A stretch of DNA of 64,000 nt from assembly GCF_036507355.1 (NCBI RefSeq), contig NZ_AP027877.1; one strand, given 5' to 3'. Positions 4,707-9,773 of this stretch are shown piece after piece. The notes under the pieces are model-generated. The model had not been told where the DNA came from. It did no database searches and saw only the letters and a list, made by a program, of their open reading frames with translations. How positions within the stretch are numbered: the first letter of the stretch is position 1; each line of letters begins with the position of its first letter. The position numbers were made by a program, and so were the translations under genes. Source of the stretch: Escherichia coli. Lineage in GTDB: Bacteria; Pseudomonadota; Gammaproteobacteria; Enterobacterales; Enterobacteriaceae.

Positions 4707-5927
4707 ATGTCTCAGCCAATTACGCGTGAAAACTTTGATGAATGGATGATACCTGTTTACGCTCCGGCACCGTTTATACCGGTACGTGGCGAAGGTTCGC
4801 GCTTGTGGGATCAGCAGGGGAAAGAGTATATCGACTTCGCGGGTGGCATTGCGGTGAACGCGCTGGGCCATGCGCATCCGGAACTGCGTGAGGCGCTGAA
4901 CGAACAGGCGAGTAAGTTCTGGCATACCGGCAACGGTTACACCAACGAGCCGGTACTGCGACTGGCGAAAAAATTGATCGACGCCACGTTTGCCGATCGC
5001 GTTTTCTTTTGTAACTCCGGTGCGGAAGCCAACGAAGCGGCGCTAAAACTGGCGCGTAAATTCGCTCACGACCGCTACGGCAGCCATAAGAGCGGTATCG
5101 TGGCGTTTAAAAATGCGTTTCATGGTCGCACGCTGTTTACTGTTAGTGCGGGTGGGCAGCCAGCCTATTCACAGGATTTTGCGCCACTGCCACCAGATAT
5201 CCGTCATGCTGCATATAACGATATTAACTCTGCCAGCGCGCTGATTGACGACTCTACCTGTGCGGTGATTGTCGAACCCATCCAGGGGGAAGGCGGTGTG
5301 GTGCCAGCCAGCAACGCATTTTTACAAGGTCTGCGTGAATTGTGTGATCGCCACAATGCGCTGTTGATTTTTGATGAAGTACAAACCGGCGTCGGGCGCA
5401 CCGGGGAACTGTATGCCTATATGCACTACGGCGTGACGCCTGATCTGTTAACTACCGCCAAAGCGCTGGGCGGCGGTTTCCCGGTCGGTGCGTTGTTAGC
5501 AACCGAAGAGTGCGCCAGCGTGATGACCGTTGGCACTCATGGCACCACCTATGGCGGCAATCCGCTGGCCTCGGCGGTGGCAGGCAAAGTGCTGGATCTC
5601 ATCAACACGCCAGAGATGCTTAATGGCGTTAAACAGCGTCACGACTGGTTTGTTGAGCGTCTTAATACCATTAATCACCGCTACGGTTTGTTCAGTGAAG
5701 TTCGCGGCTTAGGTCTTTTGATTGGCTGTGTACTGAATGCCGATTACGCCGGGCAAGCGAAACAGATCTCTCAGGAAGCGGCGAAAGCAGGCGTGATGGT
5801 ACTGATTGCGGGTGGCAACGTGGTGCGTTTTGCGCCTGCGCTCAATGTCAGCGAAGAAGAGGTGACGACCGGACTGGATCGCTTTGCAGCTGCTTGCGAC
5901 CACTTTGTTAGCCGAGGTTCATCATGA
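4707..5927 (+). CDS. astC: Succinylornithine transaminase
   Basis: 406-aa [23 protein letters not shown]..., class-III aminotransferase; first gene of ast operon. Confidence 0.95.
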
Positions 5928-6958
5928 TGGTCATCCGTCCCGTTGAGCGCTCAGATGTCTCGGCGCTGATGCAGCTTGCCAGCAAAACGGGCGGCGGCCT
6001 GACGTCGCTTCCCGCCAATGAAGCCACGCTTTCGGCGCGTATCGAAAGGGCAATCAAAACCTGGCAAGGCGAACTGCCTAAAAGTGAGCAGGGCTATGTG
6101 TTCGTGCTGGAAGATAGCGAGACAGGCACCGTGGCGGGGATTTGTGCCATTGAGGTGGCAGTTGGGCTGAACGATCCCTGGTACAACTATCGCGTCGGCA
6201 CGCTGGTTCACGCTTCGAAAGAGCTGAATGTCTATAACGCGCTGCCGACGCTGTTTCTCAGTAACGATCACACCGGCAGCAGCGAGCTGTGCACGCTGTT
6301 TCTCGACCCGGACTGGCGCAAAGAGGGCAACGGCTATTTGCTGTCGAAATCGCGCTTTATGTTTATGGCGGCTTTTCGCGACAAGTTTAATGACAAAGTG
6401 GTTGCTGAAATGCGCGGGGTGATTGACGAATACGGCTATTCACCGTTCTGGCAAAGCCTCGGTAAACGCTTCTTTTCGATGGATTTTAGCCGCGCCGATT
6501 TTCTCTGCGGCACCGGGAAAAAGGCATTTATTGCAGAACTGATGCCGAAACATCCGATCTATACGCACTTTTTATCCCAGGAAGCCCAGGACGTCATCGG
6601 TCAGGTACATCCGCAAACCGCGCCTGCCCGTGCGGTACTGGAGAAAGAAGGTTTTCGCTACCGTAATTATATCGACATCTTCGACGGTGGGCCGACGCTT
6701 GAGTGTGACATCGACCGCGTGCGCGCCATCCGTAAAAGTCGGCTGGTGGAAGTGGCAGAAGGGCAGCCTGCGCAGGGCGATTTTCCGGCCTGCCTGGTCG
6801 CCAATGAAAATTATCACCATTTCCGCGTGGTGCTGGTGCGTACCGATCCGGCAACCGAGCGTTTGATATTAACCGCCGCACAACTGGATGCCCTGAAATG
6901 CCACGCCGGGGATCGCGTTCGTCTGGTGCGCCTGTGCGCAGAGGAGAAAACAGCATGA
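5924..6958 (+). CDS. astA: Arginine N-succinyltransferase
   Basis: 344-aa [14 protein letters not shown]...; ATGA overlap with astC stop. Confidence 0.95.
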
Positions 6959-8433
6959 CTTTATGGATTAACGGTGACTGGATAACGGGCCAGGGCGCAT
7001 CGCGTGTGAAGCGTAATCCGGTATCGGGCGAGGTGTTATGGCAAGGCAATGATGCCGATGCCGCTCAGGTCGGGCAGGCTTGTCGGGCAGCCCGTGCGGC
7101 GTTTCCGCGCTGGGCGCGGCTCTCATTTGCTGAACGTCAGGCAGTTGTCGAACGCTTTGCCGCACTGCTGGAAAGCAATAAAGCCGAATTAACCACGATT
7201 ATTGCCAGAGAAACGGGTAAGCCGCGCTGGGAAGCGGCAACCGAAGTGACGGCGATGATCAATAAAATCGCGATATCAATTAAGGCGTATCACGTTCGTA
7301 CCGGCGAGCAGCGTAGTGAAATGCCGGACGGTGCGGCGATCCTGCGACATCGCCCGCACGGCGTGCTGGCGGTGTTTGGGCCGTATAATTTCCCTGGTCA
7401 TTTGCCGAACGGACATATCGTTCCGGCATTGCTGGCAGGTAACACCATTATCTTTAAACCCAGCGAACTGACACCGTGGAGTGGCGAAGCGGTAATGCGT
7501 TTATGGCAGCAGGCTGGCTTGCCGCCGGGCGTGCTGAACCTGGTGCAGGGCGGGCGTGAAACGGGTCAGGCGCTGAGTGCGCTGGAGGATCTCGACGGCT
7601 TGCTGTTTACCGGCAGCGCCAATACCGGCTACCAGTTGCATCGCCAGCTCTCCGGTCAGCCGGAGAAAATTCTCGCCCTCGAAATGGGCGGCAATAACCC
7701 GCTGATTATCGATGAGGTGGCGGATATCGACGCGGCTGTCCATCTGACCATTCAGTCGGCGTTTGTCACAGCCGGGCAACGCTGCACCTGCGCCCGCCGT
7801 TTATTGCTCAAAAGCGGGGCGCAGGGCGATGCGTTTCTTGCTCGTCTGGTTGCCGTCAGCCAGCGATTAACACCGGGCAACTGGGATGACGAACCGCAGC
7901 CGTTTATTGGCGGGCTGATTTCTGAACAGGCCGCACAGCAGGTGGTTACTGCCTGGCAGCAACTGGAAGCGATGGGCGGACGAACCCTGCTTGCGCCGCG
8001 CTTATTTCAAGCAGAGACATCGTTGCTGACGCCGGGGATCATTGAAATGACAGGCGTTGCTGGTGTACCAGATGAAGAGGTGTTCGGACCGTTATTGCGC
8101 GTCTGGCGTTATGATACTTTCGATGAAGCGATTCGAATGGCGAATAACACTCGCTTCGGACTCTCTTGCGGTCTGGTTTCCCCCGAGCGGGAAAAATTCG
8201 ATCAACTGTTGCTGGAGGCGCGGGCGGGGATTGTTAACTGGAACAAACCGCTTACTGGTGCTGCCAGTACCGCGCCATTCGGCGGCATTGGTGCTTCCGG
8301 TAACCATCGCCCCAGCGCCTGGTATGCCGCAGATTACTGCGCATGGCCGATGGCGAGCCTGGAGTCGGATTCGTTAACGCTGCCCGCGACACTTAACCCC
8401 GGGCTGGATTTTTCCGATGAGGTGGTGCGATGA
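6955..8433 (+). CDS. astD: Succinylglutamate-semialdehyde dehydrogenase
   Basis: Aldehyde dehydrogenase family; start set at MTLWINGDW (ATGA overlap with astA stop) rather than the longer ORF-track start at 6898; 492 aa. Confidence 0.93.
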
Positions 8434-9773
8434 ACGCCTGGGAAGTTAATTTCGACGGGCTGGTAGGGCTGACGCATCATTACGCGGGCCTGTCGTTTGG
8501 TAATAAAGCCTCTACCCGTCACCGTTTTCAGGTGTCTGACCCGCGACTGGCGGCAAAACAGGGCTTACTGAAAATGAAAGCCCTTGCCGATGCGGGATTC
8601 CCCCAGGCCGTGATCCCGCCGCACGAGCGTCCGTTTATTCCGGTGCTGCGTCAGTTGGGATTCAGTGGTAGCGATGAGCAGGTACTGGAAAAAGTTGCAC
8701 GCCAGGCACCGCACTGGCTTTCCAGCGTCAGCTCCGCTTCGCCAATGTGGGTAGCCAATGCGGCAACGATCGCGCCATCTGCCGATACGCTGGATGGCAA
8801 AGTGCATCTCACCGTTGCCAACCTGAACAATAAATTTCACCGTTCGCTGGAAGCCCCCGTCACTGAATCACTTTTAAAAGCGATTTTTAACGACGAAGAG
8901 AAATTTAGTGTCCATTCGGCGTTGCCGCAGGTAGCGTTGCTCGGTGATGAGGGGGCGGCAAACCACAATCGTCTCGGCGGTCATTACGGTGAACCGGGCA
9001 TGCAGATTTTTGTTTACGGGCGAGAAGAGGGCAATGATACCCGACCTTCGCGCTATCCGGCGCGGCAGACTCGCGAAGCCAGCGAGGCGGTCGCAAGGCT
9101 CAATCAGGTGAATCCCCAACAGGTGATTTTCGCCCAGCAAAACCCGGACGTTATCGACCAGGGCGTTTTTCATAATGACGTGATTGCCGTGAGTAACCGC
9201 CAGGTGCTGTTTTGTCATCAACAGGCGTTCGCTCGACAGGCGCAGTTACTGGCAAACCTGCGTGCTCGGGTCAATAGCTTTATGGCAATAGAGGTGCCCA
9301 CGGCGCAGGTTTCCGTGTCGGATGCGGTGTCTACATATCTGTTCAACAGCCAACTGCTGAGCCGCGATGATGGTTCCATGGTGTTGGTGCTGCCACAGGA
9401 GTGTCGGGAACACGCCGGAGTATGGTGTTATCTAAATGAACTCCTTGCCGCTGACAACCCGATCAGCGAACTAAAAGTCTTTGATTTACGTGAAAGCATG
9501 GCGAATGGCGGTGGCCCGGCGTGCCTGCGGTTGCGGGTGGTATTGACACAAGAAGAACGCCGGGCGGTGAATCCGGCGGTGATGATGAACGATACCTTGT
9601 TTAATGCGCTCAATGACTGGGTGGATCGTTACTACCGCGATCGTCTTACTGCTGCCGATCTGGCCGACCCGCAATTGCTGCGCGAAGGGCGGGAAGCACT
9701 GGATGTATTGAGTCAATTACTGAATCTCGGTTCGGTTTATCCGTTCCAGCGCGAGGGAGGGGGGAATGGATAA
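8430..9773 (+). CDS. astB: N-succinylarginine dihydrolase
   Basis: 447-aa ORF; 4-nt overlap with astD. Confidence 0.95.

Follow-up and report, generated by a model that had tools for sequence, protein, structure and literature searches.

The arginine succinyltransferase genes astCADBE lie end to end in a 64,000-nucleotide stretch of Escherichia coli DNA (contig NZ_AP027877.1; the whole stretch is called the window here), and their packing raises two questions: are the cistrons translated in dependence on one another, and does such dependence fix the amounts of their products? An earlier note, made from the sequence, had claimed tight coupling across the ast operon and the nearby ydjXYZ-ynjA block, a fixed stoichiometry of the products and strong polar effects of insertions. 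We conclude, with a probability of roughly 0.7, that the astCADBE cistrons are translationally linked through their overlaps and the Shine-Dalgarno (SD) sequences embedded in them, without being held to a 1:1 ratio. This conclusion draws on the anatomy of the junctions and on a published reporter experiment with one of them, astD/astB.

Junctions and embedded ribosome-binding sites

The genes are those of the canonical E. coli astCADBE operon of the arginine succinyltransferase pathway. In the order C-A-D-B-E on the plus strand, and in the xthA...spy neighbourhood, lie astC (4707-5927; succinylornithine transaminase, 406 aa, the first cistron), astA (5924-6958; arginine N-succinyltransferase, 344 aa), astD (6955-8433; succinylglutamate-semialdehyde dehydrogenase, 492 aa), astB (8430-9773; N-succinylarginine dihydrolase, 447 aa including a lineage-specific C-terminal extension of six residues) and astE (9766-10734; succinylglutamate desuccinylase, 322 aa, the last cistron). 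The five-enzyme set is complete (NF009047/TIGR03246, NF007770/TIGR03244, NF006992/TIGR03240, TIGR03241 and TIGR03242), and all five proteins pass the curated NCBIfam cut-offs at full length, with alignments that begin at residue 1-3. AstC matches NF009047 over its whole length with 847 bits, residues 1-344 of AstA align with positions 1-344 of the NF007770 equivalog profile, and AstD, AstB and AstE match the equivalogs TIGR03240, TIGR03241 and TIGR03242, respectively. The open reading frames (ORFs) that meet at the junctions described below are all intact and in frame, and the gene coordinates agree with those that the Prokaryotic Genome Annotation Pipeline (PGAP) gives for an E. coli genome of 98.6% identity as well as with the annotation of K-12.

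Direct reading of the window confirmed the four ast overlaps that the earlier note had described. astC and astA share an ATGA at 5924-5927 (stop TGA 5925-5927, ATG 5924-5926; a distance of -4, overlaps being counted as negative), and the same four letters join astA to astD at 6955-6958 (-4; stop 6956-6958, ATG at 6955) and astD to astB at 8430-8433 (-4; stop 8431-8433, ATG at 8430). The astB/astE overlap is 8 nt long, ATGGATAA at 9766-9773, with the stop TAA at 9771-9773 and the ATG at 9766 (-8). On the minus strand, ydjZ and ynjA share TGATG at 1172-1176 (-1; stop TGA 1176-1174, ATG 1174-1172), an overlap that also occurs in another E. coli (L003), in Escherichia albertii (L004) and in Citrobacter sp. 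R56 (L008). All five junctions are co-directional and belong to the -4, -1 or -8 class. The ydjZ/ynjA overlap had been reported correctly as such, but had been placed within 5924-9773, whereas it sits at 1174, far outside that interval. Within its block (626-3288, minus strand; ydjX 2578-3288, ydjY 1896-2573, ydjZ 1174-1881 and ynjA 626-1174) and at ynjA/ynjB, the remaining junctions are short spacers, not overlaps (ydjX/ydjY +4, ydjY/ydjZ +14, ynjA/ynjB +9). The title of the earlier note overstated this part of the case, since the ydjXYZ portion rests on a single -1 overlap.

The start codons from which these distances are counted hold up on N-terminal conservation. NCBIfam equivalog or subfamily models align from residue 1-3 of each of the four downstream proteins, AstA, AstD, AstB and AstE. 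AstA begins with MM- in all Enterobacterales and Acinetobacter, including loci in which a spacer precedes the gene, and with M-L- in Pseudomonas and Burkholderiales; because the MM is kept even after a spacer, 5924 is the homologous astA start. A start at the second ATG of astA, at 5927, would turn astC/astA into a TGATG junction (-1), and was rejected on the same N-terminal conservation. A longer in-frame astD ORF from 6898 was likewise rejected, as the family models give it no support.

Each downstream ast start is preceded, 5-9 nt to its 5' side, by an SD sequence made by the last codons of the upstream gene. For astA this is GAGG at 5914-5917, within the astC coding sequence (anti-SD duplex -6.6 kcal/mol), and for astD it is GAGGAG at 6941-6946, within astA, where it encodes the conserved ...EEK... 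tail (-9.1 kcal/mol). The astB motif, GAGGTGG at 8419-8425, lies within astD (-9.2 kcal/mol), and the astE motif, GGGAGGGGGG at 9755-9764, lies within the C-terminal extension of AstB (-11.9 kcal/mol), all on the plus strand. The SD of ynjA, GAGGA, is also embedded in its upstream ORF (-6.0 kcal/mol). Across 23 Enterobacteriaceae/Erwiniaceae loci, the SD motifs are stronger than roughly 95-98% of the windows taken within genes of those loci. The purine-rich astA SD is retained in 23 Enterobacterales loci while the residues of the AstC tail varied; indeed, the tails of AstC (after ...CERF) and AstD (after ...GLDFS) vary freely in sequence, that of AstD also in length. That the SDs are kept while the tails vary is good evidence that the conserved objects at these junctions are ribosome-binding sites rather than protein tails.

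Translational coupling at astD/astB and its proposed extension to the other junctions

The astD/astB junction was among five native E. coli -4 pairs examined in a double-reporter test by Huber et al. 2019 (PMC6728339); few native overlaps in E. coli have had their coupling proved directly by experiment, and this is one of them. In that study, a premature stop upstream, with transcript levels remaining similar, made translation downstream 'extremely low or undetectable', removal of the SD (the GAGGTGG motif was mutated; Suppl. Table 2) brought reinitiation down by 60-90%, and a fragment from -99 to +30 was enough for coupling (PMC6728339). The core tested there, ATGAGGTGGTGCGATGAACGCCTGGG (ATGAGG TGGTGCG ATGA ACGCCTGGG), is identical to window positions 8417-8442, and within the -99 to +30 fragment the window differs from K-12 only at -60, -51, -50, -42, -39 and +17. 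The claim of coupled translation is thereby supported at astD/astB by experiment in K-12. At astC/astA, astA/astD and astB/astE it is plausible by analogy, as these junctions have the same overlap classes and strong embedded SDs, and the -4, -1 and -8 classes have been associated with coupling (PMC12548453, PMC10666635).

We propose that astCADBE is probably transcribed as one mRNA, and that a ribosome ending at an upstream stop codon would sit directly on the SD and AUG of the next cistron, because a strong SD lies 5-9 nt upstream within the last codons of the gene being completed. The downstream cistron would then rely, for most of its translation, on ribosomes fresh from the upstream one, through termination-reinitiation assisted by the SD or through hand-over. 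The same dependence would hold in the native mRNA from astC to astA, astA to astD, astB to astE and ydjZ to ynjA. Coupling of this kind would link the expression of the cistrons without setting a 1:1 ratio among them.

An operon of this class is expected to form a single transcription unit whose promoters, upstream of astC, respond to nitrogen and to stationary phase. Within the ast operon, we found no excess of promoter-like or terminator-like sites and no Rfam element. Upstream of it, a sigma-54-type -24/-12 promoter-like element, TGGCACgaaccCTGCA, is present at 4619-4634 (plus strand), 73 nt 5' of the astC ATG and with one mismatch to TGGCAC-N5-TTGCW. Matches to this pattern are not more frequent within the window than expected by chance, so the assignment rests on the position of the element and on prior knowledge, astC presumably having a sigma-54/NtrC (nitrogen-regulated) promoter.

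Strong polarity of insertions at the locus, the third claim of the earlier note, is a reasonable expectation by analogy, because the stop-codon variant of the astD/astB reporter behaved in this way; polarity is, however, general to operons. Insertions, deletions and nonsense mutations in upstream ast genes are likely to lower the expression of the genes that follow. In practice, the design of ast knock-outs should keep the last ~20 nt of each upstream gene, where the ribosome-binding site of the next gene lies, and refactoring or recoding of the operon requires that the overlaps be separated. Beyond such housekeeping, the ast overlaps matter little.

Origin of the overlaps and alternative explanations

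To place these junctions in context, we compared 80 loci with AstB, drawn from species-representative genomes; distances were measured from tblastn anchors, with starts chosen under the guidance of homology. At all 22 loci sampled from Enterobacteriaceae and Erwiniaceae (Escherichia, Citrobacter, Enterobacter, Pluralibacter, Pseudescherichia, Kluyvera, Cedecea, Siccibacter, Mangrovibacter, Pantoea and Erwinia), the astC/astA, astA/astD and astD/astB distances are -4, -4 (or -1) and -4, and among the sampled loci this trio of -4 overlaps appears confined to these two families. In Yersiniaceae, Photorhabdus and Acinetobacter, astC/astA measures +13 to +57 and astD/astB +10 to +239; these lineages, along with Pseudomonas and Burkholderiales, have spacers of tens to hundreds of nucleotides at most junctions. 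The sole junction that is tight nearly everywhere across Proteobacteria is astA/astD, at -8 to +10 in 57 of 68 loci (median -1). Published cross-species medians, +2 for AstA-AstD (COG3138@COG1012) and -1 for AstD-AstB (PMC10666635), agree with our survey. Three Serratia loci (L023, L024 and L026) have a 50-52 nt astC/astA spacer with a GC-rich inverted repeat (e.g. GGCTGCGCC...GGCGCAGCC), which could fold into a stem-loop between the cistrons and so allow expression levels to differ between astC and the genes after it.

Among the loci sampled, Escherichia and Citrobacter alone have the -8 overlap at astB/astE (window 9753-9773; loci L009-L014 and L017). In their relatives, a TAA or TAG stands right after AstB ...YPFQ(R/Q) and is followed by a spacer of 9-11 nt that contains the SD. 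Escherichia and Citrobacter have a sense codon in that place, and AstB continues for six residues to a TAA inside astE; the AstB lengths of 447 aa vs 441 aa in the protein search match this extension. Because the stop codon of the relatives is a sense codon in these two genera, the overlap arose there by stop-codon loss.

Apparent AstB-AstE, AstD-AstB and AstC-AruF fusion ORFs (L010, L052 and L047) were rejected as artefacts of alignments that ran through in-frame stops. A decayed ast operon is present at two loci, L083 and L084 (CP061527.1 and CP026782.1; ~4.4 Mb genomes, with IS1 in or near locus positions 1-6750), where astC is interrupted (by IS1 in L083) and astD and astE are each split. 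Here the frames at the astD/astB ATGA have merged into an in-frame AstD'-AstB fusion of 599 aa (...DEVVR joined to NAWEVNF...), which is consistent with a 2-nt loss as judged from the protein sequence only; this fusion protein is present on ~90 contigs. A single metagenome-derived protein, P0061 (609 aa), has Pfam domains of both AstB and AstE (PF04996 with PF24827 and PF04952); it may stem from gene fusion at the -8 overlap, or else be an artefact of assembly or of a frameshift. In the draft genome of E. albertii NBRC 107761 (L004), astC (~4278-5498) is seemingly in two ORFs, through a frameshift or pseudogene or through sequencing error.

Stop/start overlaps of these lengths are the most common type in bacteria. 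The distances -4, -1 and -8 are the three that are enriched in prokaryotic genomes (Brown & Wade 2025, PMC12548453). For E. coli, Huber et al. 2023 (PMC10666635) give 707 pairs spaced at -8 to +6 among 2,987 that are co-directional (24%). Of the 47 co-directional pairs in the K-12 region that corresponds to the 64-kb window, 8 overlap, half of them (4/8) being the ast junctions. Taking published overlap rates and this local 64-kb sample together, four consecutive overlaps would occur in 0.24^4 to 0.4^4, or ~0.3-2.6%, of five-gene stretches, assuming independent junctions. Four overlaps in a row are at the compact end, yet they are a common architecture and not an anomaly, and such a run is expected in a genome with hundreds of operons. 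The distances themselves are on record for K-12 (PMC10666635, Table S2: astC/astA -4, astA/astD -4, astD/astB -4, astB/astE -8; ydjX/Y +4, ydjY/Z +14, ydjZ/ynjA -1, ynjA/B +9), and with astD/astB coupling also known already, the finding is correct but ordinary.

Several points weigh against translational linkage. Only astD/astB has been tested among the four ast junctions, as a plasmid reporter fragment, and one of the five -4 pairs in the same study, bioB/bioF, is uncoupled and initiates de novo, while menD/menH is coupled only ~60%, with ~40% de novo initiation (PMC6728339); an overlap thus suggests coupling but does not prove it. Depletion of the ribosome recycling factor (RRF) leaves coupling and the ribosome-density ratios of overlapping pairs unchanged, and Saito et al. 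2020 (PMC7538156) hold that coupling in E. coli does not work mainly by reinitiation, favouring de novo initiation after the melting of structure. Each downstream ast gene has an SD that is strong enough to support initiation on its own, and the prediction for the astD start region is an open one (opening energy 5.8 kcal/mol). That ATGA is conserved says little about selection on coupling, because nearly any mutation there kills a start or a stop. The strong SDs at all four downstream starts, the de novo initiation at bioB/bioF and menD/menH and the RRF data would also fit a scenario in which the overlaps are a by-product of compaction and free 30S subunits use each SD, with little or no true coupling. 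So would the origin of the astB/astE overlap by loss of an ancestral stop, AstB reading through the old SD-containing spacer, as would the spacers at C/A, D/B and B/E in most other lineages and the view of Brown & Wade that the abundance of -4 overlaps reflects ease of evolution (PMC12548453). We nevertheless consider this scenario unlikely, given the near-total dependence on upstream translation in the astD/astB experiment and given that a terminating ribosome at -4 or -8 would, judging from its footprint, cover both the SD and the start, making some interplay unavoidable. Also doubtful is the possibility that local structure hides each start until the upstream ribosome melts it and a new 30S subunit binds, the same ribosome not being re-used. 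This model is generally preferred by Saito et al. (PMC7538156), and structure at the astDB start region was also predicted by Huber et al. (PMC6728339). For the window sequence, we find the astE AUG within a predicted hairpin (UUAUCCGUUCC/GGAAUGGAUAA; opening energy 17.6 kcal/mol, probability of being unpaired 0.18), and to open the start region of astB would cost 16.5 kcal/mol. However, the -99 to +30 junction fragments are no stabler than dinucleotide shuffles (z -0.7 to +2.2), RNAalifold returned no conserved structure across the astD/astB start (consensus -0.95 kcal/mol over 23 sequences from Enterobacterales), Escherichia and Citrobacter do not have the E. coli astE hairpin as their consensus, and the predicted openness of the astD start region argues in the same direction. 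At the ast junctions we found no conserved helix that sequesters an SD or AUG, only single-sequence structure predicted at astB and astE, and an unfolding model of ast coupling is without comparative support.

The remaining alternative, that the overlaps were selected to fix Ast molar ratios or to allow co-translational assembly of a complex or metabolon, is very improbable. The tightness of astA/astD, within -8 to +10 in those 57 of 68 diverse loci, would speak for it, but AstA and AstD do not act at consecutive steps of the pathway, and the heteromeric pair AruF/AruG of Pseudomonas is encoded by genes separated by 51-82 nt. E. coli pairs whose products form heteromeric complexes show a 4.5-fold enrichment of short overlaps, yet in 69.6% of the tight pairs of E. 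coli no complex is encoded, and all ast pairs, like the ydj/ynjA pairs, are scored 'CMPLX not' (PMC10666635, Table S2). The PDB has no entry with two different Ast proteins, all Ast structures being single-protein; neither there nor in the PMC10666635 curation do the products form a stable complex of defined stoichiometry, which is absence of evidence only. Expression is not uniform along the operon either, since in a ribosome profiling comparison mRNA fold changes fall from 5.1 to 2.2 and the ratio of ribosome-protected fragments (RPF) to mRNA ranges over 1.3-3.3 (PMC9045200); in a deep proteome, AstC is the sole Ast protein quantified (PMC6544118). The claim of fixed stoichiometry in the earlier note is therefore not supported. 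The junctions do not imply it, because the efficiency of reinitiation is pair-specific and SD-dependent, and because no Ast hetero-complex is known and other lineages use spaced genes.

Translational linkage through overlaps and embedded SDs, without a fixed ratio, remains the explanation that we prefer. It could be carried further, to a relay of ribosomes in which essentially all synthesis of AstA, AstD, AstB and AstE would trace to the astC start. Such a trait would be derived in Enterobacteriaceae/Erwiniaceae and completed in the Escherichia-Citrobacter lineage by the stop loss that made the astB/astE spacer coding. We regard this proposal as speculative and probably wrong; if true, translational control at the astC start, whether by a small RNA, an RNA-binding protein or structure in the 5' untranslated region, would spread to the whole pathway. 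Whatever the mechanism, the ast comparison offers a small, clean case of how overlaps originate and persist, with its lineage-specific tightness, its -8 overlap by stop loss and its astA/astD junction that is tight nearly everywhere.

Surroundings of the operon and comparison with known systems

Matches over at least 80% of the length of the window's first 16 kb came from 5,421 complete E. coli genomes, the top match being 98.6% identical, and K-12 MG1655 is colinear with the window (~1.774-1.837 Mb, reversed) at ~98% identity. The minus strand carries ynjB, ynjA, ydjZ, ydjY, ydjX and xthA; on the plus strand, the ast genes are followed by spy, ves, cho, nadE, osmE and chbB. Further downstream, at 15632-16399, an IS1-like element with ORFs at 15687-15962 (91 aa) and 15881-16384 (167 aa) takes the place of ~3.4 kb of the chitobiose operon, so that the 3' part of chbC, chbA, chbR and the 5' part of chbF are gone relative to K-12; the top-matching RefSeq genome has the same IS1 and truncated chbC. 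Beside it, positions 16400-17671 (the chbF 3' end and chbG) are 93.5% identical to K-12, vs ~98-99% in the flanks, and look like a divergent or recombinant patch. Four Rfam families score above their gathering thresholds in the window, none in the ast or ydj regions: the RprA small RNA (61922-62029, minus strand), the pheST Phe leader (34565-34689, plus), STnc540 (38530-38688, plus) and ES036/CssrF (13282-13324, minus).

Compared with known systems, the window is closest to K-12, in which astCADBE (b1748-b1744) agrees in gene order, in the lengths of the genes and in the distances at the junctions (-4, -4, -4, -8), and ydjX/Y/Z-ynjA/B has the same spacing (+4, +14, -1, +9). The two ast operons are 97.9% identical in nucleotide sequence and differ by strain-level substitutions only, none of which falls in a start, stop or SD, except at position -2 of astE. 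Huber et al. 2019 showed coupling by termination-reinitiation for the native E. coli -4 pairs astD/astB, hyfH/hyfI, ydbH/ynbE and menD/menH, and with these the window shares the ATGA overlap as well as an SD that lies 5-9 nt upstream, within the preceding ORF. The first of these is the very pair present in the window, whereas astB/astE, as a -8 overlap, is unlike the -4 pairs of that study.

The Pseudomonas aruCFGDBE operon encodes homologous enzymes in the same gene order as ast, and its aruG/aruD junction, equivalent to AstA/AstD, is also tight at -1, -4 or 0. Unlike ast, it has two AstA paralogues, and its other junctions are mostly spaced (aruC/aruF +55 to +245, aruF/aruG +51 to +82, aruD/aruB -1 to +282, and a gap of ~305-417 nt at aruB/aruE). 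The classical coupled pairs are trpB/trpA, trpE/trpD, galT/galK and rplK/rplA. Several of them code for subunits of a single complex or depend on a defined inhibitory RNA structure, whereas the Ast proteins are separate enzymes and their junctions yielded no conserved structure. What the classical pairs have in common with ast, as we understand it here, is that the downstream gene's translation needs translation of the upstream gene across a very short or overlapping junction.

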